The notes under the pieces are model-generated. The model worked only from the letters and a program-made list of their open reading frames with translations. It had not been told where the DNA came from and searched no databases. A program made the position numbers and the translations under genes. Positions 5,736-63,972 of a DNA stretch of 64,000 nucleotides are shown here, one piece after another. Origin of the DNA: a virus; the IMG/VR virus record IMGVR_UViG_3300025519_000001, positions 90,760 through 154,759 of that record; one strand, written 5' to 3'. Positions within the stretch are counted from its first letter, which is position 1. Each line of letters opens with the position of its first letter.

Positions 5736-6751
5736 TATATCACCTTAAATTTTTCAATAGTCTTAAAATTAGATACATCTATACTCTTTCTAAACAAAGC
5801 GCCATCATATGTCCAAGATAAATCTTTTTCTAATTGCTCTTCATATGTTGTTTTTAATTTTAAACTACCATCAAAATCAACATATGGATTTTCTTCAAAT
5901 TGAGTTTTCTCGGCTTCTGTAAAATCATTTACAATCATATTGTATATTTTATTATCACCAACCAACTCAACTTTTACTTTAATATATCTTCCCTGTGGAG
6001 ATGTGATATTTCCATTATCATCAATCAATGACCATTCTGAAAAATTCACATAATCATTTGATGTAGATGTATAGATATTTATAGTGGTTCCCGTTGGAAT
6101 TGTACTAACATTGGTGACTGAACCTATTTGTCTTACATATTGACTAAAATCGATAATGTTTGACTCAAAATATCCATTATTTTTATAGAAGGATGTTTTT
6201 TCAAACATTTCAATATAAGCTATATTAACATATATATCATTTTTATTTGTTATATAAATTCTATAATATAAAAAACTGTCATTGTTATTAAGTGTAAATG
6301 TTTTTTTGTTTACACTTGTGTCCCAAGAATGATTACTCTGCGTATCTAAAGTCGTCCAATTACTGTTATCATTTGATCCTTGAAATTCCCAGTCTCTTGG
6401 TGAATAATTAGGGTATGAAGGGTCTATGGTGATTGAATATCTTTTAATTATTTTAGGTAAAGTAAATTTGTACCCAATATAACTAGGATTAGTGTCTGTT
6501 TGCCAATAATTATTACTAGATTCAAAAGCGTAATAGCCCGGATATCCATGCATAAAACTATTACGAATTACTTGCCCACTTGGTGTTCCATCAGAAGTCA
6601 TTTCTGGAATTGATGTTTCGGATAAAATAATTTCTCCCACAAACGTTAATTGCAACTTTTCATCGACAACTTCAACATCAATTTTGTTGCCTCTATTCCA
6701 ATCTAGGCTTTTATTACTATCAATAATAACCGCCATTAGCTTACCACCCAA
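5735..6751 (-). CDS. Discoidin (F5/8 type C) domain virion protein
   Basis: YIGYKF, SPRDWEFQGSND..WTTLD, YYRIYIT motifs; likely start 6736. Confidence 0.75.
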   Translation of the reverse strand: MGGKLMAVIIDSNKSLDWNRGNKIDVEVVDEKLQLTFVGEIILSETSIPEMTSDGTPSGQVIRNSFMHGYPGYYAFESSNNYWQTDTNPSYIGYKFTLPKIIKRYSITIDPSYPNYSPRDWEFQGSNDNSNWTTLDTQSNHSWDTSVNKKTFTLNNNDSFLYYRIYITNKNDIYVNIAYIEMFEKTSFYKNNGYFESNIIDFSQYVRQIGSVTNVSTIPTGTTINIYTSTSNDYVNFSEWSLIDDNGNITSPQGRYIKVKVELVGDNKIYNMIVNDFTEAEKTQFEENPYVDFDGSLKLKTTYEEQLEKDLSWTYDGALFRKSIDVSNFKTIEKFKVI

Positions 6752-7903: not shown

Positions 7904-9084
7904 TCCTCCAAAGTATTAGAATTTGTTTTTATATCCAAATTAACTGTTATTCCCTTTATGTTTCCATCATATTGATAAACATTAATCCTAAAATAATCGC
8001 CTTTTGTTACATTTACATCTTCAACAACGCCACCTGTTGCAATTATATTATTTGGTTCAAAAGATAAATTTTCCGAAAAAATATTATCCCATGTGCCACT
8101 TAAAAATTCACTTTCCGATATTTTTTCAATACCAATTTGGGTACTAACCGAAATACCACTTTCCACACAATCAGCTTTAATATTTACGATTTCGCCGTCA
8201 AATGGAATTTGACTAAAACCAACAACATATTGAACACCTTGATCAATTATTTTGGGAATTTTAAATAAAACCCTTCTTAAAATAAAATTCTGATAATCTT
8301 CTTTGTGCAGAAGACCATCAGAATTTTCGGAGACATATGGAATTGCTTCTCCGATGATATTTCCAACCAATTGCCATTGATATGATACAACACCATCATA
8401 ACGATAAATATCGCCCGTTGTATTTATTAATACCTGCCATCCATTTTCGGGTTCAGGATAAACTGTTTCTAAATCATCATATGTGTCTACAGCAGGTTTT
8501 CTAATTACTACTGTTGTAGTTGCTGCATCGTAAGCAGCCTGCGCCGCTTGATTTGCATGATCTGCGGCCACATTAGCATTGTCAGTAGCAACATTGGCAT
8601 TATTGGTAGCATCTCTAGCATCGGAGATTGCTTTATTTATCTCGATTATTTTTTCGTTTATTGTTTTCGTGTAATTTACAAGTTGATCTACATAGTCCTG
8701 CAAAGTAACCAACACATCTGGATTATTTCTTGCAATGGCGTAGATTCTGCTGGCTGGATAAAGAATCAAGCCTCTCCCTAGATAAGAGCAGACTAATGTA
8801 TTACCTTCTTGTGAAGGGTGAAATTGAATAATCCCTACTGCATAGTTGACAACAAATTCATTTTCTTTGAGTGCCTTTGTCTTTTTGTAAACTTCCTCTG
8901 GAACTTCCACGAACCCTGTTATTTGAACTTTATGAGTATATGAGGGAACTTCTAAAAGAGTAATTTTATTGTTGATAACCGGAAGAGAATCGGAACGTGG
9001 AATATAAGGATCTTCTGGCGTTCCTTTTCGCCAAACAATAACGCTTGAATCGATGTGTTCAAGATATGTTTTTAACTCAGGCAT
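7900..9084 (-). CDS. Baseplate/fibre-attachment protein with coiled-coil
   Basis: NEFVVNY..GIIQF N-domain, Ala/Asn-rich heptads, YPEPENGW motif; follows tail tip genes. Confidence 0.6.
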   Translation of the reverse strand: MPELKTYLEHIDSSVIVWRKGTPEDPYIPRSDSLPVINNKITLLEVPSYTHKVQITGFVEVPEEVYKKTKALKENEFVVNYAVGIIQFHPSQEGNTLVCSYLGRGLILYPASRIYAIARNNPDVLVTLQDYVDQLVNYTKTINEKIIEINKAISDARDATNNANVATDNANVAADHANQAAQAAYDAATTTVVIRKPAVDTYDDLETVYPEPENGWQVLINTTGDIYRYDGVVSYQWQLVGNIIGEAIPYVSENSDGLLHKEDYQNFILRRVLFKIPKIIDQGVQYVVGFSQIPFDGEIVNIKADCVESGISVSTQIGIEKISESEFLSGTWDNIFSENLSFEPNNIIATGGVVEDVNVTKGDYFRINVYQYDGNIKGITVNLDIKTNSNTLEE

Positions 9085-9101
9085 CTATGCACCTCCTTTC
9101 A

Positions 9102-9596
9102 TTAGTTGGGGATATTTAATTTTGTATTTCCATTTGCAATTGTTGTTGTTGTCCCAAGACATGTGGTTACTTGAGAGCCAATCAAAGCTATAGGCTGTCC
9201 ACCTAACTTTGCTTTTGAACTTCCCGATATAATTCTTCCATTCCCAGAACCAGACGTAGGAGAAGTTGGAATATACCTAGTTGTTGATGTATTCGAAGGA
9301 ATGGGGGGATCGGCAACCCAAGTTTCAACTGTCTGATCACCAACTTTTGCAACATTAGTTCCGCCAATTTTCATTTTTGAAGAAGGGACAGATACATAGC
9401 CAGTAATTTTAGCTCCTGTGCTACCCGATCCTGACGGAACCCATCCATAATCATCTTGCCAAGCAATACAGTTTCCTTCTTCGTCCGTTTCCACACAATG
9501 GCTACCAATTACTTGCCAAGTTTCAATGTTGTATGTGACATATCCGGGTTTTGTTGAAGGTGCTATTGTTGAACCATTTACTGCAACTCCAGACAT
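9102..9596 (-). CDS. PAAR-like spike-tip protein
   Basis: Repeated IGGTNVAKVGD / LGGQPIALIGS, IISGSS..K, terminal TTCLG. Confidence 0.6.
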   Translation of the reverse strand: MSGVAVNGSTIAPSTKPGYVTYNIETWQVIGSHCVETDEEGNCIAWQDDYGWVPSGSGSTGAKITGYVSVPSSKMKIGGTNVAKVGDQTVETWVADPPIPSNTSTTRYIPTSPTSGSGNGRIISGSSKAKLGGQPIALIGSQVTTCLGTTTTIANGNTKLNIPN

Positions 9597-10155: not shown

Positions 10156-10819
10156 CCAAAATCACTCCGTCTTCATCTATTGATAAATAAACCGGATTGG
10201 TTAATTCTTTATTATACGAAAGCTTTTCAATAACTTCTATGTGTTCTGATGTTAATCTATTTAAATCTTTTTTAGGAATGAGAAAATTTTTTGAATCTAC
10301 GTTTAAAACTTCAGTTGAATTAATAAAATCTGGCGTATAAATTTCTTTAAAAAATAGAAGTTTTTGAATATCGTTTTCACTTAAAAACTCTTCATATAAA
10401 GGTACTTGTAATTTACCTCTATTTATTTCATCTTCTTTTGAATTCCATATATTAAATCCATGGGTTAATTTTGATAATTCCATTTCCGTATGAACTCTAA
10501 CTAAAAAACAACTAAGTTCTGCTCTATCCTCATTTACGTCTGAAGAATACATTCTAAATTGATCCAAAGCATTTGCTGCAAAATCTAAATATTCATATGT
10601 GTAATCCCCATAAACATCACTAAAAACAGGGCCATGAATATATCCCTTTAAAGATCTTAACTCATAAATATCATTTTCAATCTTCGAATACAATTCGTAG
10701 AAAAATAAAAATTTTTGTAATTTAAGTGGTGAATTAAATTCTCTTTCATGGTTATTTCTTAGCCAACCACATAAAATACGCTTTCTGGAACTAGAATTTA
10801 GGCCCGGATACCTATACAA
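10148..10819 (-). CDS. Panacea/SocA (DUF4065)-like antitoxin
   Basis: SPLKLQKFLFF, HGPVFSDVY, ELSKLTH..W motifs. Confidence 0.7.
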   Translation of the reverse strand: MYRYPGLNSSSRKRILCGWLRNNHEREFNSPLKLQKFLFFYELYSKIENDIYELRSLKGYIHGPVFSDVYGDYTYEYLDFAANALDQFRMYSSDVNEDRAELSCFLVRVHTEMELSKLTHGFNIWNSKEDEINRGKLQVPLYEEFLSENDIQKLLFFKEIYTPDFINSTEVLNVDSKNFLIPKKDLNRLTSEHIEVIEKLSYNKELTNPVYLSIDEDGVILVD

Positions 10820-51969: not shown

Positions 51970-53016
51970 ATGCTTGCGATTAAAAATGTAGGAATCATAA
52001 GAAATCAATCTGTTTTCGAAAATATTCAATCTTTTCTGAGGAACTATGAGAAAAGAAGTAAAAATACAGGAATTGCTTATGAAAATGATATTCGTTTATT
52101 TTTTAGAGTTCTAAAGCACAAAGAATTGGAACAATTATCTGAAGAAGATTTGAAGGTTTCTTTGCCAGAAATTTTTCAATATCAAAATCTGTTGATTGAA
52201 TCTGGAGAATATAAAAACAGCACAATTAATCGTAAAATTAATACTATCAAGAGTTTGTATTCATATCTTAAAGGATGCGAATATGACGTAAACCCTTTTG
52301 TTTTCAAACAAATAAAGGATCTTCCGAACGACACAAAAAATATAGGATTTTTGACCCCTGATGAAGTTTGGTTGCTTGCTGATCTGGCATTACAGGAACA
52401 AAGAGACGGTCTTAAAAAAAGAGCGCTTATTCTTACCGCAGGAACCACAAGTATCAGAAAAAGCGCCATTAGAAAGTTAAAAATGTCACATTTCAGAAAA
52501 AGTGAAGACGATGATCACACGTACATTATTGAATCTGACTTCTTCGACAAATCAAAATTAATCGAAAAAAGAATACATGAAAAATTATATTTTTTGATCA
52601 AAGAAGCACATGGAGATAAAGGTGAAGATGAATTAATTTTTGATATTAGCGATACAGCAATTGATGATATGATGAAACGCTTAATTAAAAAAGCTGGATT
52701 TGACCCAAAAAGAAACTTAAGTTTTCATAGTCTACGTAAAGCTGCGATTATGTGGGTTGATGAATTTACAAACGGAGATATGGTAGCTATTACAGCACAG
52801 GGAGATTGGACAAGTCCTACGGTAGCATACAATAACTACATCAATAAAAAACGTAAAACAAACTTAGCTGGCATTGGAATGTTTGAAGATAGCGATAATA
52901 GCATATATGACGAATTAACTAGAGAAGAAATGCTTTGTTTATTAAAGTCGATTGGGAACGGCCTTGGAGCACAATTGAGAAGTAAAGCTAAAGAAATTTT
53001 AAAAAATAGAAATTAA
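51970..53016 (+). CDS. Tyrosine-recombinase-fold protein (resolvase or recombinase-derived repressor)
   Basis: SAM-like N-domain (NSTINRKINTIKSLYSYL), SIRKS, SFHSLRK, QGDW, YNNY. Confidence 0.8.
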   Translation: MLAIKNVGIIRNQSVFENIQSFLRNYEKRSKNTGIAYENDIRLFFRVLKHKELEQLSEEDLKVSLPEIFQYQNLLIESGEYKNSTINRKINTIKSLYSYLKGCEYDVNPFVFKQIKDLPNDTKNIGFLTPDEVWLLADLALQEQRDGLKKRALILTAGTTSIRKSAIRKLKMSHFRKSEDDDHTYIIESDFFDKSKLIEKRIHEKLYFLIKEAHGDKGEDELIFDISDTAIDDMMKRLIKKAGFDPKRNLSFHSLRKAAIMWVDEFTNGDMVAITAQGDWTSPTVAYNNYINKKRKTNLAGIGMFEDSDNSIYDELTREEMLCLLKSIGNGLGAQLRSKAKEILKNRN

Positions 53017-57209: not shown

Positions 57210-58060
57210 ATTGATTGGTGATTTAATATTAAAATAGCGGCCATTTATGGTCGTTTTTTATTTTTGGTGGATGATTGATGGTTGTATTGGCGATGAGATT
57301 ATTAGTGTTTTTAATGATGGATGATGTAATCGTGGTGAATCGGATGGTGGATTTAGGGGTGTATAGGAACGAAATTTGGGAGTTTTGGATGGATGTGAAA
57401 TGTGAGATTTTTTGTTGAAAAATAAGTGGTTTTCGAGCGTTTTTGGATGGTTTTTGGAGAAAAATCATTAAAATTTGGTGTTTTTTAATCGCAAAAAATA
57501 TTGATTTTTAAGGGATTTTTGATGGTTGAATGGGGGTTGTTACGGAATTGGAAATTGCCTTGGTTGTTATTTTTGCATTTGTTTATGGTGTGTTTTCGAT
57601 TATGATTGCGATATATTTGTGGCTGTTTTTATGGATGATTTGGTATATGATGGTATTTTTGTTGAATCGCTCGTTTTGTGTATTGGGTGTGGTGATGGAT
57701 GTGCTGACGGTAGAAATTATGGAAAAAATGGAATAAAATGTGTAAACTATCCCCCCTACCTATGGTAGCATTTAGCACCCAAAAAGCTAGGAAAATCCGG
57801 CCATAATATGAGTTATAGACGGATTGCCGGATTGCGATAGTATCCAGGCGAGCGAAATAGTACTTTCATTCTTTATGGCGTTAAAGCATTAAAGTTTAGT
57901 ATATTAAAGTTCTAAAGTTAAAATGGCGACAAAATACTAGCGAAATAAAAATGGAAATAATCGCCATTGTAACAAGCCGCGTTTTGGTAGTGTCTTAGGT
58001 GTATTAAGTGAACTAATACACTAATACACTAGTGCACAAAAGCCAATCAAAAAAACATCA
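57210..58060. other. Non-coding strand-skewed region with CCCCCC switch point; possible packaging start or genome end
   Basis: G/T-rich to ~57745, CCCCCCTACC at 57751, then A-rich DNA with TAAAG and ACTAATAC mini-repeats. Confidence 0.4.
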
Positions 58061-58079: not shown

Positions 58080-58108
58080 TTGACATTATGCGATGCCGCG
58101 AGTATAAT
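58080..58108 (+). promoter_or_regulatory. Perfect consensus sigma-A early promoter with A-tract UP element
   Basis: TTGACA-17-TATAAT with upstream A tracts. Confidence 0.9.
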
Positions 58109-58114
58109 TAAAAA

Positions 58115-58560
58115 TGTAAGGAACAACGGACACCAGCGAACGCTAGATGCGAGCCGACCGCACACAATGGTGGGATGCTGCCAGCCAGTAGGCTCGATGA
58201 TGCTAAGTGGGAATGTCCGCATAAAAGCAAAATATCGCAACGGCAGGGCGGACGTGCCTAGATAGCTAGGCAATCCATCCGGGAGCGCCTAACAGCGCGA
58301 CAGTCATGCACTTTGATAATTACATATCGGCCCATCCGTTGATCGTCAACGTTAAAACGCTACGCGAAACAGCGCGGCAAGCACTAGGCAGGAAATGGGA
58401 AGCCTGTCTAGGCGACTGTCCCGGAGGAAGCGTCTCCTCTACTATCGCCCGCTATCGGACATAGATAGGGGAGGCGACGACCGACGCAAGGCAGGCAGGG
58501 TAGGAGTCCCGCACAAAACCCATAGCAACGATAAGAAGGTTATAACGCCCCACAATGCTT
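58115..58560 (+). ncRNA. Large structured leader RNA of the early operon
   Basis: GC-rich, no credible ORF, many nested helices; boxA-like GCACTTTGATAA at 58308. Confidence 0.6.
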
Positions 58561-58736
58561 TTTATGTTAGTTTTGCCTTTCCTCGCTTCGCAATCCTCGA
58601 TTCAAAAGCTGCACATAACGATATTTGCTCATGTAACACAATTGTTATAGTCTTCTTATCGCTGTTGCTAGCACTAGACAGTCTCAGCCTTTTGGCTGTC
58701 TTTTGTGTCCCCTGTTTAAAAAGGAGAATGTTACAT

Positions 58737-58970
58737 ATGGAAAAAAATGACATTGAAAAAATATGTGACAAAATGAACAGAGGCGAATTGAAAAATACAT
58801 TTGACGCGATGGTAAATCAAGCAGATTACCATGAATTGAGGCAAATGTTATTTGCAGCCAACGATTTGATGACGAGTGTCCAAAGAAGGATATATCTCAA
58901 AAAAATATGCCATAATAGGATTGCAGATTTTATAACGGCTGTTGAAGAAAATGGGATTTTAGAATTCTAA
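58737..58970 (+). CDS. Small early protein (77 aa)
   Basis: SD AAGGAG at 58721, MEKNDIEKICDKM...; real part of track ORF 58395-58970. Confidence 0.65.
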   Translation: MEKNDIEKICDKMNRGELKNTFDAMVNQADYHELRQMLFAANDLMTSVQRRIYLKKICHNRIADFITAVEENGILEF

Positions 58971-59062
58971 ACCAAAAACCAAAAACAGGGGACACAAAAG
59001 ACAGCCAAAGATATTTTTGGCTGTCTTTTGTGCTTCCCTGTAAAAAAATGGAGGAATAAAAA

Positions 59063-59248
59063 ATGCGTAGAACTTTTACGGAAGAAGTCGCCTACTATGA
59101 CGCAAAAAAAGTTATGCCAAATGTGTATGTTGGCACAAAAAACATCAAAACAGGCTACCGCATTATTACAGGTAGCGAATCAGGTTATACGTCCGTTATC
59201 GTATCTCATCAACAGGTTGATGCCATTAGAAAATTCTTGAATATATAA
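59063..59248 (+). CDS. Small early protein (61 aa)
   Basis: SD TGGAGG. Confidence 0.7.
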   Translation: MRRTFTEEVAYYDAKKVMPNVYVGTKNIKTGYRIITGSESGYTSVIVSHQQVDAIRKFLNI

Positions 59249-59339
59249 CACAAAAAACAAAAAACAGGGAAGCAGAAAAGACAGTCAAAAAACAATAACA
59301 AAACATCATCTTATAACGCTATAAGGAGAGTGACACACA

Positions 59340-59435
59340 ATGACGCAACGTCAACTAATCCTAGCGATTAGCCGTCTCCAACGGCGACAAATGCTCAAAA
59401 GCCTTTTCGTACATGGTCGCTTGACCATGCGCTGA
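59340..59435 (+). CDS. Small basic peptide (31 aa)
   Basis: Manual: SD AAGGAG, MTQRQLILAISRLQRRQMLKSLFVHGRLTMR. Confidence 0.45.
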   Translation: MTQRQLILAISRLQRRQMLKSLFVHGRLTMR

Positions 59436-59462
59436 AAAAAGCAAAAAATGGAGGAATAACAA

Positions 59463-59741
59463 ATGACAAAAAACCAAACGATCATCCTTTCGGAACTTGC
59501 TCGTCTTGGAATTAAATTCCAATACGACGGCCAAAACCTCCTCACGTTCCAAGAATGGAAAAAGCGCGGCTTTTACGTTCGGCGCGGCGAAAAGGCGTTT
59601 CTCCAAGTGCCTTTGTGGACGCCATGCGAAAAAACCGTTACAAAAGACGGAAAAGAAGAAAAGCAATTCTATTTTATTCTCAAAAAGGCTTCTCTCTTTG
59701 CGCCTTCTCAAGTTGAACGCCTTATAGTAAAAGGCGCATAA
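59463..59741 (+). CDS. ArdC-N-like ssDNA-binding domain protein
   Basis: TFQEWKKRGFYVRRGEKA...LW...F..SQV. Confidence 0.7.
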   Translation: MTKNQTIILSELARLGIKFQYDGQNLLTFQEWKKRGFYVRRGEKAFLQVPLWTPCEKTVTKDGKEEKQFYFILKKASLFAPSQVERLIVKGA

Positions 59742-59857
59742 CAGGAGGTAAAATATACTACAAGAGATAAAAAAATTTGAGTTGATCGACGGAACGAAAA
59801 AATATATAAGCCGTGATAAAATAATTGATATTATGATATGAAGGGAAGGAAATAAAT

Positions 59858-60079
59858 ATGCATAAGTACAATCCCACTACTAACGCAATTGTTATAGGCG
59901 ATTCGTTCCCGTTCCTCTTTTCACGTATCCGTTGCAAGCTGACGGATACAATTTACAAGGCAAAAAACGCCTACCGGTCGCCGGAAGGAGACGATATCTA
60001 TACATTCGTTTCTGATTGCGGAAAATCGTTTGACTCCGCGATCTATGTCGGATTTTTTGACAAGTACGAAAGCGTATAG
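59858..60079 (+). CDS. Small early protein
   Basis: SD AAGGA, 73 aa. Confidence 0.55.
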   Translation: MHKYNPTTNAIVIGDSFPFLFSRIRCKLTDTIYKAKNAYRSPEGDDIYTFVSDCGKSFDSAIYVGFFDKYESV

Positions 60080-60117
60080 ATCTAGGAGCTCGCTCGAGAG
60101 TGTCGGACAGCCACCAT

Positions 60118-60144
60118 AGAAGCCTAATAATAGGCTTCTTTTTT
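60118..60144 (+). terminator. Intrinsic terminator inside the early operon
   Basis: AGAAGCCTA-ataa-TAGGCTTCT-TTTTT. Confidence 0.7.
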
Positions 60145-60180
60145 ATAAAAACAAAAAAACAAAAAATGGAGGAATCTACA

Positions 60181-60438
60181 ATGTCCGAAAACAAAAAGAA
60201 AGCTATTCTGTCCGCTGCTCGCGGAAGCTGGCAGTACAATGTAGCTAGCATGTTGGCATCTGGTCGGCCTATCCAGTCTCCCTTTTCAACGTTGCGCGGA
60301 AAAGCAAAAAATTACGAGTTACATTACAAATCATCTTTCCTGTCGCTCCTCTCCCGTCTCCAAGCAGCAGGAATCCGCATTGAGCGGACGCCGGGAGTCC
60401 GCGGCGGCGAGTATACTGCTACATATCGAGTAGTATAA
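60181..60438 (+). CDS. Small basic early protein
   Basis: SD TGGAGG, MSENKKKAIL... Confidence 0.7.
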   Translation: MSENKKKAILSAARGSWQYNVASMLASGRPIQSPFSTLRGKAKNYELHYKSSFLSLLSRLQAAGIRIERTPGVRGGEYTATYRVV

Positions 60439-60535
60439 CGGTCGCGATATGCTAGGACGCATAACTAAAATATGATATTATGGTTGTGCGTCCGATGGAT
60501 AGCGCGACTATCCAAAAAAAAGAAGGAGGAATAGT

Positions 60536-60682
60536 ATGAAACCTTTGACGCTGAGCGACATTATAAAAGCCTTCGACACTCAGAACAAAGACAAGCCCCA
60601 AAAGCATATTTTTTATGACGGCTTTCCCGGTCTGCCGCGCATAACGGCAGACGATTTGCGCGACTATCAGCGGCCCTTTTAA
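60536..60682 (+). CDS. Small early protein (48 aa)
   Basis: Manual: SD AAGGAGG, MKPLTLSDIIKAFD... Confidence 0.6.
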   Translation: MKPLTLSDIIKAFDTQNKDKPQKHIFYDGFPGLPRITADDLRDYQRPF

Positions 60683-62703: not shown

Positions 62704-63156
62704 ATGAAAAAATGGTATATCGATGATGTTTTTGTGCGCGAAGGCCGCATGTATGATCGCGGCTACTACATTGCGCAGAATGACGCGAAGGCATGGGTCG
62801 AGTGGCGAGAGCCTATTCCAAACGGCGAGACATACACATTTCCGCTCTCGGAATGCGCACATGAAGATGGTACGCCGATCCAAGTTGAGGACGGCGAACT
62901 AATTGGTACAATAGTCGAAGTCTCTGTGGATCGTCTCGAAATCCGCGAAGACTTTCCAAATCGGGACGAGGCATACGCTATTCTGACGGACGGCCAGCAC
63001 TTTGCCTTCGCGTGGGGGCCGAAATACCCCTACGCCGAAATAGTTCCGGCGCAGGATGTGAGGGACGGCGAGAGCGGGCTGGAGTGGTACGCCACCGAGC
63101 ATGAGGCTCGGGCGGCGATGAACGAGGCGACGGATGCCTGGAACACGCAGGGCTAG
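62704..63156 (+). CDS. Acidic early protein
   Basis: SD AAGGAGG, MKKWYIDDV...; higher GC than flanks. Confidence 0.7.
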   Translation: MKKWYIDDVFVREGRMYDRGYYIAQNDAKAWVEWREPIPNGETYTFPLSECAHEDGTPIQVEDGELIGTIVEVSVDRLEIREDFPNRDEAYAILTDGQHFAFAWGPKYPYAEIVPAQDVRDGESGLEWYATEHEARAAMNEATDAWNTQG

Positions 63157-63211
63157 GGACTGTCTCGCGCAAGCCGAGACCGCCGGGAAACCGGCGCTCC
63201 GCTCAACCTGC
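63147..63211 (+). ncRNA. Twister-sister-like self-cleaving ribozyme (three-way type), copy 1
   Basis: GCAGG-GCTAG-GGA-CT-GTCTCG CGCAAGC CGAGAC-CGCCGG GAAA CCGGCG-C-TCC-GCTCA-A-CCTGC; predicted cut C63204/A63205. Confidence 0.8.
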
Positions 63212-63271
63212 TATAACAGGCGGCGCGTAAGACCGCACCAAATGGGCGGCGGCGCGAAAGGAGAATGAAAT

Positions 63272-63874
63272 ATGACTTGGGATGCATGGGATTATTACAA
63301 TAATTGCCCCGTTTGTGGCGAGGCAAACTATACCAGTCATGGTTATTGCTCGGACGAGCACTACCTGACTTCGCTCAATAATGAGGAAAAATTTGCATAT
63401 CTATCCCAAAAAGCAGCCAAAGACGCTGCCGAAAGGGAGCGAGAAGCGAAGCAAGTACAGCGCATTATTTCATTCATTAACACCCATAAACCCGTATACC
63501 AAATGCCGGCAGATTCTGTCTGCTTTTGGTGGGAAGATCGCTATCGCCCTGATTTTACGGATTTTCTCGGGAGATGGCAACGTAACAAATGCTTTTGTTA
63601 CGGTCGCGTGGTTTACGGTGATAGAGGCATATGGGCGGAAAGTCTCCTTGAACTGGAGGAGGCTTTCCACCAAAAGAAAGTAAAAATTGTCTACGACATT
63701 AAAGATCATTTGGGTAATTTAGTGTCGTGGGAAGACTTCCTGTATTACGCGGTTACGGCCTGCGTCAATACGGAAGAGCAGTTCCTTGGCATCAAAAATT
63801 CCGCCAAAGAATTCATTCTTGGGCGGAATAGCAAAATCCAGAGGTATTCTTTTGCAGATGGGCTAGAACCCTGA
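63272..63874 (+). CDS. Early protein with N-terminal Zn finger
   Basis: CPVC...YCS..H; SD AAGGAG. Confidence 0.7.
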   Translation: MTWDAWDYYNNCPVCGEANYTSHGYCSDEHYLTSLNNEEKFAYLSQKAAKDAAEREREAKQVQRIISFINTHKPVYQMPADSVCFWWEDRYRPDFTDFLGRWQRNKCFCYGRVVYGDRGIWAESLLELEEAFHQKKVKIVYDIKDHLGNLVSWEDFLYYAVTACVNTEEQFLGIKNSAKEFILGRNSKIQRYSFADGLEP

Positions 63875-63939
63875 GCAGGGCTAGGCCCAGTCCCGTGAAA
63901 GCCGGGGCCGCCCCGAAAGGGGCGCGGCGCTCAACCTGC
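63875..63939 (+). ncRNA. Twister-sister-like self-cleaving ribozyme (three-way type), copy 2
   Basis: GCAGGGCTAGGCCCAGTCCCGTGAAAGCCGGGGCCGCCCCGAAAGGGGCGCGGCGCTCAACCTGC closely matches, from memory, the crystallised three-way twister-sister; predicted cut C63932/A63933. Confidence 0.88.
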
Positions 63940-63972
63940 TATAACAGCAGGAAAAATTTAGGAGGGATTCAC

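Follow-up and report, generated by a model that had tools for sequence, protein, structure and literature searches.

The closest described counterpart of the phage element analyzed here is the processing stalk of bacterial rRNA operons, in which the leader and trailer sequences of 16S and 23S rRNA pair over more than 20 bp and form long-range helices from the flanks of the looped-out RNA. In E. coli, the RNase III stalk of the 16S rRNA is proposed to form with the help of Nus factors that are bound to BoxA and loop the nascent RNA (PMC4807359). Our phage locus has this architecture in common with rRNA operons: long inverted repeats flank a segment that can be looped out, and two such predicted stalks follow each other in tandem with a short linker, after a strong promoter and a boxA-like leader. 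In silico, the two helices are longer than the ~20 bp characteristic of a processing stalk, with 27/27 and 26/28 positions complementary and a minimum-free-energy fold that encloses the genes. The locus differs from rRNA operons in that the loops hold small protein-coding genes with ribosome-binding sites, that this cargo is exchangeable, and that the boxA-like box lies 250 to 370 nt upstream of the first repeat strand (referred to as an arm in the following).

A second counterpart is found in the promoter-early stem-loop (PeSL) cassettes of T4-type phages. A PeSL is a direct repeat that combines a sigma-70 promoter with a terminator hairpin of local type; the repeats mark the junctions at which near-identical phages differ by insertion, deletion, or replacement, and recombination between the repeats is the proposed way of shuffling (PMC2839356, PMC4122927). 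As in these phages, ORFans of a hyperplastic early region in our genome have recurring intergenic motifs on both sides, and the arms coincide with indel and replacement junctions between close relatives. In contrast to PeSLs, the arms alternate in orientation, pair across a gene, and are limited to one locus. A promoter scan revealed no promoter-like site in or beside the arms. Because the repeat is without a promoter and the arms are inverted rather than direct, the element falls outside the definition of a PeSL.

Pairing of mRNA ends across a coding region, as predicted here, is also known from the icaR mRNA of Staphylococcus aureus, in which the duplex of 5'UTR and 3'UTR is a substrate of RNase III. 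There, the 3'UTR masks the Shine-Dalgarno sequence and represses the gene, whereas in our locus the Shine-Dalgarno sequence is free in the loop. The early RNase III sites of phages T7 and SP82, which have strong purine-rich ribosome-binding sites just downstream, are similar to the arms in being conserved intercistronic double-stranded elements of early transcripts; at these sites, the host RNase III cuts the transcripts into stable monocistronic mRNAs. However, they are local hairpins between genes, whereas the conserved pairing described here spans a gene (or, in one relative, L045, no gene at all). Processing of early phage mRNA by the host RNase III is established for T7 and the Bacillus phage SP82 (Panganiban and Whiteley 1983, cited in PMC4838370). 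Furthermore, self-cleaving ribozymes near phage genes have been suggested to process polycistronic transcripts (PMC6765202). Twister-sister and pistol ribozymes are found in the same kind of gap between small early genes, and in the same operons, as the arms, but they are local and cleave by themselves, whereas the arms would need a host nuclease.

By analogy, the element would work most like an rRNA processing stalk and evolve like the PeSL cassettes of T4-type phages. We propose that an RNase III-type stalk punctuates the transcript and clamps each mRNA and that the repeats double as recombination junctions, a reading, drawn from sequence comparison, that we judge to be evenly poised between right and wrong. 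A limited literature search yielded no account of phages in which such stalks loop out protein-coding genes.

Arms, cargo genes, and operon context

The window, that is, the whole stretch of DNA analyzed, comprises the final 64 kb of an IMG/VR phage record of 154,759 bp, which is 96% complete and has a GC content of 33.6%. Structural genes lie on the minus strand until ~51.6 kb, and from ~52 kb on all genes lie on the plus strand, with a Xer-like tyrosine recombinase, a RecD2-like helicase, and a DnaD/HTH replication protein followed by many small ORFs. Neither the region nor the DnaD-like protein nor the 77-aa ORF described below has a match among cultured phages at the DNA or protein level, and a search of the genome revealed no RNase III gene encoded by the phage itself. 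The features of the locus are as follows.

58080-58108, plus strand: predicted consensus sigma-A/sigma-70 promoter, with 12/12 hexamer positions and a 17-nt spacer
58112-58690, plus strand: leader RNA, ORF-less and GC-rich, its 3' end running into arm1
~58308-58329, plus strand: boxA-like box in the leader
58691-58717, plus strand: arm1 (R1, right type), core and TCCCC-type inner part
58737-58970, plus strand: cargo 1, a 77-aa ORFan with its own Shine-Dalgarno sequence GGAG at 58723-58726
58971-58982: A/C-rich spacer directly before arm2
58983-59009, plus strand: arm2 (L2, left type), perfect complement of R1
59010-59013: centre of the L2-R3 palindrome, 4 nt, asymmetric
59014-59041, plus strand: arm3 (R3, right type), core and CTTCCC-type inner part
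59063-59248, plus strand: cargo 2, a 61-aa ORFan found in all relatives of this lineage with 92-100% identity
59264-59291, plus strand: arm4 (L4, left type), with a conserved G.G mismatch to R3
59340-59435, plus strand: conserved 31-aa mini-ORF, following the cassettes in the same operon
59463-59741, plus strand: ArdC N-terminal-domain-like gene (anti-restriction family)
60118-60139, plus strand: intrinsic terminator-like hairpin with T run, the next good plus-strand terminator after the promoter
63145-63215, plus strand: self-cleaving ribozyme of the twister-sister class, located between genes of this early region
63873-63943, plus strand: second twister-sister ribozyme, also in an intergenic gap
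Genome positions 115-186, at the start of the record: third twister-sister ribozyme

The arms thus lie on the sense strand of a predicted early operon with the order leader, cassette 1, cassette 2, 31-aa mini-ORF, ArdC-N-like gene, 73-aa ORF, and terminator; the hairpin at 60118-60139 is the probable end of the operon. The ArdC-N-like gene appears, by sequence likeness, to mark the operon as early or anti-defence. The 77- and 61-aa proteins, like the 79- and 71-aa proteins found at the corresponding place in relatives, gave no credible family or fold lead; the exchanged ORFans are probably anti-defence genes. Promoters are present at the equivalent place in the relatives L029, L045, and L046. 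The leader is ~570 nt long, has a GC content of 53-55% in a genome with 34% GC, and contains no convincing ORF; blocks of it are conserved in L029 and L045. The boxA-like box is invariant in these two relatives and degenerate in the window, where it deviates from the relatives' form; L046 is without it. The putative box matches the Firmicute/mollicute rrn spacer box, whose conserved mollicute form is represented by a Mycoplasma rrn spacer primer quoted in PMC3019172, and also the boxA of Bacillus rrn operons. A scan of IMG/VR with the leader motif gave no match.

The initial annotation of this DNA had described a perfect 27-bp inverted repeat around the 77-aa gene and a 28-bp repeat around the 61-aa gene. 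Indeed, a repeat search recovered arm1 and arm2 as 27-nt sequences that are 100% complementary (27/27) and 265 nt apart; arm3 and arm4, 28 nt long and 222 nt apart, were present as well, with a complementarity of 93% (26/28) and one G.G and one G.U as the mismatches. All four arms have an 18-nt core in common, and their gene-proximal parts differ between the pairs, being of the TCCCC type in pair 1 and of the CTTCCC type in pair 2; the statement that the variable parts match across each gene is therefore true in this genome. The adjacent arms 2 and 3 can form a local hairpin, as had been noted, since they make up a 20-nt palindrome (58993-59012/59013-59032, 95%). A 16-nt core with up to 3 mismatches occurs 7 times in the window, compared to an expected number of 0.69, and none of 100 shuffles reached 7 copies; across all 154,759 bp of the genome, no good copies of the core exist besides the four arms, and no further long clean inverted repeat with its strands within 3 kb emerged when the genome was scanned. 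The arms are not an assembly artefact because the same arms are present in independent ENA, JGI, and Logan assemblies.

The geometry of the cassettes is constant. The right-type arm ends 15-21 nt before the ATG, and therefore, the Shine-Dalgarno sequence stays free in the loop; the left-type arm starts 12-16 nt after the stop codon. Neither the arms nor the leader matched an Rfam family at gathering or permissive thresholds, and the arms contain no ribozyme signature. Scans of IMG/VR, JGI metagenomes, and GTDB genomes with the arm pattern returned only this lineage and chance matches in GC-rich bacteria.

Cargo exchange and pairing in close relatives

Exact-protein look-ups and one metagenome pattern scan yielded ~12 contigs of close relatives from ENA, JGI, and Logan; a search for related loci with the 61-aa ORF gave no match. 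A single ENA assembly contains both L026 and L033. Four relatives (L026, L027, L034, and L035) have the same layout as the window. In L033 and L044 (the latter being the same contig as L038), an unrelated 79-aa ORFan replaces the 77-aa ORF, and the sequence is identical to the 77-aa form until the Shine-Dalgarno sequence and again from just past the stop codon. Cassette 1 is absent altogether in L029-L032 and L041, where arm3, the 61-aa gene, and arm4 come immediately after the leader, and it is also absent in forms present in the metagenome runs X3 and X5.

Comparison of the Logan contigs of four metagenomes with the region revealed the corresponding joints. One bioreactor run contained both cargo forms, with the joint 58726-58974 at a depth of 45 and the 77-aa form at a depth of 38. 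In runs X3 and X5, loose ends were found in which the core of arm1 or its left flank is fused to the inner part of arm3; such a fusion results from an exchange between arm1 and arm3 or is its empty precursor. At low depth, a record of run X5 may have arm3 and arm4 next to each other, with hardly any sequence in between. Alignment of cassette 2 in nine contigs showed that each type of cargo 1 occurs with both downstream haplotypes, the 77-aa form being split between L026 and L034/L035 and the 79-aa form between L033 and L044. With all four combinations of cargo 1 and haplotype present, recombination must, according to the four-gamete criterion, have taken place in an interval that includes the arm2/arm3 palindrome. 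In the 79-aa variant, the asymmetric palindrome centre (59010-59013) is flipped, and the flip travels with cargo 1. The assembled metagenome contigs also revealed further indels at 59741-60301, away from the arms. The whole region around the cassettes is hyperplastic.

These findings would fit conserved intergenic palindromes that act solely as recombination linkers on the DNA level, much like the boundary sequences known from mosaic phages. The arms would then be homology patches, the complementarity of right (R) and left (L) arms would be a by-product of gene conversion, and an RNA helix would have no function. The replacement and loss of cargo and the four-gamete evidence at the arms, the palindrome centre that is flipped between cargo types, and the indels that occur away from the arms in a hyperplastic region are all consistent with such linkers, and the PeSL cassettes of T4-type phages provide a precedent (PMC2839356). 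The distant relatives described in the next section bear on this explanation.

The presence of 27-28-bp terminal inverted repeats around variable cargo, the existence of an empty element (L045), and a tyrosine recombinase gene (51970-53016) ~6 kb upstream of the cassettes could also suggest mobile or invertible DNA cassettes. The cassettes would then be miniature transposons with terminal inverted repeats, with the L045 hairpin as the cargo-less copy, or segments flipped or inserted by a recombinase in the manner of a shufflon or an integron. We consider this to be very unlikely. A TIR transposon or MITE shares the inverted repeats, but there is no target-site duplication at any cassette, and there are no dispersed copies, either elsewhere in the genome or beyond the locus in IMG/VR, GTDB genomes, and JGI metagenomes. 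No integron core-site motif (attC) is present at the borders, and the sole tyrosine recombinase is generic Xer-like and scores far under every equivalog cut-off. Furthermore, all of the ~12 contigs have the genes in one orientation and none has a strand-changing joint, which is a weak test of inversion since contigs drop rare forms; likewise, no circles were seen among the metagenome contig joints, in which rare forms can be missed. The initial annotation had named repeat-bounded cassettes, inserted or inverted, as an alternative, and it had suggested a look for different genes between the same arms. The latter were found, in the form of the 79-aa ORFan of L033/L044 and of the relatives without cassette 1. 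Exchangeable cargo is therefore real; the notion of inversion received no support from the contigs.

The predicted minimum-free-energy fold of 58670-59310 consists of two gene-enclosing stalks (−175.3 kcal/mol, z = −9.9), with duplex energies of −48.3 kcal/mol for R1/L2 and −42.9 kcal/mol for R3/L4. In the window, this enclosing state is predicted to be better than the nested state by ~11 kcal/mol. In L033/L044, arm2 is of the CTTCCC type and arm1 still of the TCCCC type, so that arm2 and arm3 form a perfect 26-bp palindrome, and the arm1/arm2 duplex (−42.7 kcal/mol) contains a bulge and a mismatch. The best fold of these relatives is nested, with arm1 paired to arm4 and arm2 to arm3, and therefore, the exact pairing partner is not fixed. 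Contrary to the earlier claim that covariation favours gene-enclosing over adjacent pairing, the matching of types in the window appears to reflect which arms travelled with which cargo and not a fixed rule. The mismatches, three cases of G.U (window, L029, and L046) versus two of C.A (L026 and L029), have no clear sense-strand bias. Of the proposed likeness to the stalks around 16S and 23S rRNA, the covariation argument is not generally valid; the conserved R...L pairing in L045 and L046 argues for the likeness, and the boxA-like box fits it.

The stability of the local arm2/arm3 hairpin (−40.8 kcal/mol in the window and −48 kcal/mol in L044) raises the question of a terminator/antiterminator switch, in which this hairpin would attenuate read-through into gene 2 or terminate transcription bidirectionally and arm1 would compete for arm2. 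Consistent with this, arm2/arm3 was flagged as terminator-like on the minus strand, a small 5-bp hairpin with a T run (58685-58698) was flagged on the plus strand, and the stem-loops of PeSLs are effective terminators. However, the arm2/arm3 hairpin is without a proper U tract on the sense strand, where only four U follow the core stem and A runs follow the extended stem, and on the minus strand there are no downstream genes to terminate. Moreover, L029, L045, and L046 are devoid of any L-R hairpin, yet the R...L pairing is kept. A role of the arms as such a switch is thus distinctly unlikely; the weak hairpin at 58685-58698 could be an end point for some transcripts.

Right-left pairing in distant relatives

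A more distant relative, L045, was found via a 69-aa homologue of the 79-aa cargo. It has the same arrangement of promoter and leader, with several invariant leader blocks, and homologous R and L arms that form an empty hairpin of 26-31 bp with a loop of 14-24 nt and a predicted energy of −40.9 kcal/mol (z = −7.3). Compared to the window, L045 carries two substitutions in the core, both of which are compensated (GGCTG to TGTTG and CAGCC to CAACA), and its single mismatch, G.G, is the same one that arm4 carries in every relative. Matches of the L045 hairpin to microRNA-precursor families of Rfam reflect only its long-hairpin shape. Upstream of the leader, L045 has an HTH gene.

An even more distant lineage, L046/L047, is syntenic with the window from the integrase to the leader (integrase, RecD2, a DnaD-like protein with 41% identity, a strand-skewed desert, promoter, and leader). 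Its first post-leader gene (71 aa, 10220-10435) lies inside a perfect 16-bp repeat (10189-10204/10451-10466) that is unrelated in sequence to the arms and extends to ~25 bp with G.U pairs (−30.5 kcal/mol). A repeat of this quality was reached by 0/1000 dinucleotide shuffles of 1 kb and by 1/300 shuffles of 2.8 kb. Relatives of the DnaD-like protein in L024/L025, L049-L052, and L054-L062 are without leader and arms; the layout was seen in only three or four lineages.

Every relative retains predicted R...L duplexes, with energies from −38 to −51 kcal/mol. Since the stem is kept while the cargo is swapped, lost, or absent, the R...L pairing is conserved and its content is exchangeable; by sequence comparison, the stem looks like a conserved socket for exchangeable genes. 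Compensatory changes as such are no proof of an RNA helix because gene conversion in palindromes can keep complementarity at the DNA level. However, recombination linkers on the DNA level leave unexplained why L045 retains an empty R-L hairpin with compensated changes, and recombination between direct repeats alone cannot create an R-L hairpin. They also leave unexplained the unrelated repeat of L046, with the same spacing to ATG and stop codon, and an island of invariance at arm4, where a 20-nt inner and core part is identical in 9 contigs although both flanks vary and a local partner is missing. We therefore regard an exclusive role as recombination linkers as unlikely.

Binding of a phage or host regulator is another function that the repeats could have, with the arm2/arm3 palindrome as the site of a dimer and arms 1 and 4 as half-sites for DNA looping. 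The four copies of the 18-nt core, including one 40-bp near-perfect palindrome, and the HTH gene of L045 are compatible with operators. Against this, the arms of L045 come in the order R, then L, which is the reverse of their order in the palindrome; a palindrome is missing in L029, and in L046 it is unrelated sequence that surrounds an ORF in the same geometry. Furthermore, the arms lie downstream of the promoter and not at it; operators are, in our opinion, scarcely credible here. The empty hairpin of L045, the repeat of L046, the constant geometry of the cassettes, and the invariance of arm4 together argue for selection on a helix that closes the translation unit and for genes having entered the loop of a stem that was already there.

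A proposed RNA stalk in an early operon

In the proposed RNase III-type stalk, R and L would pair as the strands of one long, conserved stem located behind the leader RNA of an early anti-defence operon. The ORFans have their own ribosome-binding sites in the loop of the stem, and therefore, each translation unit would be closed by a helix of 26-28 bp; the length of this helix is that of RNase III substrates. The helix would form in the mRNA, and the host RNase III would cut it, detaching the leader. Each small mRNA may then be released with its 5' and 3' ends clamped by the remaining stem and protected against exonucleases; after the cut of a 27-bp stalk, ~10-13 bp would join the ends of each mRNA. 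A consensus of RNase III sites in Bacillus was not found in the literature searched. Through Nus factors recruited by the boxA-like box, the 5' arm could be kept close to the polymerase, in line with the proposal for the 16S stalk. Points that weaken the stalk reading are the mismatches without clear strand bias, the pairing partner that differs between variants, the small number of lineages with the layout, and the deviating boxA-like box of the window. Furthermore, since copies of the arms occur in both direct and inverted order, they would also act as homology patches for the exchange, loss, and gain of cargo between co-infecting relatives.

It is imaginable that the operon, as the first one expressed by the phage, mimics an rRNA operon as a whole: a boxA leader would recruit the Nus machinery, the RNase III stalk would be a plug-in socket from which any small gene in the loop is automatically cut out as an end-clamped, stable mRNA, the repeats would let co-infecting phages swap anti-defence ORFans, and self-cleaving ribozymes would do the same punctuation in sister lineages. 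We offer this wider picture tentatively and hold it to be possible but doubtful.

If the stalks work in RNA, protein-coding messages would be looped out in the style of rRNA, possibly coupled to the boxA leader, and the same element would supply the junctions for the exchange of ORFans. This would link the stabilization of early phage mRNA, the purpose of ribozymes near phage genes, and the shuffling of hyperplastic ORFan regions, and it would provide a compact and portable part for expressing genes from polycistronic transcripts. The stalk would punctuate transcripts as twister-sister and pistol ribozymes may do in other gaps of these phages. L045 has two pistol ribozymes, one of which, at 5902-5969, immediately precedes the homologue of the 79-aa cargo.

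The leader RNA and the DNA upstream of the early promoter

Directly behind the early promoter lies a conserved, GC-rich leader or noncoding RNA of about 500 to 600 nt, with several invariant blocks in a comparison of the window, L029 (a relative without the first cassette) and L045 (a distant relative with an empty arm hairpin). These blocks include a boxA-like box, which is unchanged between L029 and L045 and degenerate in the window. No Rfam family was matched by the leader, and its fold z-score, calculated on a single sequence, is only -2.1. We regard it as a candidate for a new phage RNA.

Upstream, the interval that separates the early promoter from the DnaD-like gene holds an ORF-poor desert whose plus strand is almost without C. 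Its position is kept across three lineages (the window, L045 and the more distant syntenic phage L046), and it could serve as an origin, as a packaging site or as an entry end. In L046, the desert is followed by a C run and then by a G-poor stretch. The three lineages of the window, L029 and L045 also share a short conserved box, starting with ATCGCCAT, ahead of the early promoter.

Features around the early promoter
Window 57260-57740; L045:880-1180; L046:7800-8580 and 8900-9530: C-poor desert, with the G-poor stretch of L046
Window 57962-57979; L029 ~247-264; L045 ~1381-1398: short conserved box
Window 58112-58690; L029:395-880; L045:2072-2700: promoter-proximal leader
Window ~58308-58329; L029 ~627; L045 ~2347: boxA-like box

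Exchange at the arms and variation downstream of the cassettes

The arm2/arm3 palindrome has an asymmetric centre, and in the relatives that carry a 79-aa ORFan in place of the 77-aa ORF this centre reads as the exact reverse complement of the window's (centre and flanks: window 59010-59013; L033:349-356; L044 ~482-489). The sequences give the impression that, in this variant, the opposite strand of arm3 served as the template for the left arm and the centre.

The right arm of L046 has a second possible partner: its 3' part (L046:10196-10216) can pair locally with the Shine-Dalgarno sequence of the enclosed gene, and therefore, it is imaginable that left-arm pairing could free the ribosome-binding site.

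Three genes have a near-identical 23-nt translation-initiation region in common, and A/C-rich spacers are repeated ahead of them; these are additional homology patches in a hyperplastic region. Metagenome contigs revealed that, in relatives, 384 nt are replaced by 44 nt (window 59741-60126), 67 nt are deleted (60233-60301) and a 725-nt back-joint is present (59837-60561). Hence, gene content 3' of the cassettes is variable, too.

Common 23-nt initiation regions
Window 59043-59065
Window 59443-59465
Window 60161-60183

All relatives, L029 (92%-level lineage) among them, have kept a mini-ORF of 31 aa with its own ribosome-binding site (window 59340-59435), which possibly encodes a real micro-protein.

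Ribozymes in early gene gaps and a hint at the host

Three twister-sister ribozymes in the window's phage and two pistol ribozymes in L045 all sit between small plus-strand early genes; the gene at 63272-63874 has a ribozyme on either side.

Self-cleaving ribozymes
Window 63145-63215: twister-sister
Window 63873-63943: twister-sister
Genome 115-186: twister-sister
L045:5902-5969: pistol
L045:8319-8392: pistol

L025, a distant relative that has the DnaD-like protein in common (48% identity), contains a BsrG toxin-antitoxin RNA of the SPbeta prophage family (L025:505-752), a hint that the wider group has a Bacillus-type host range.
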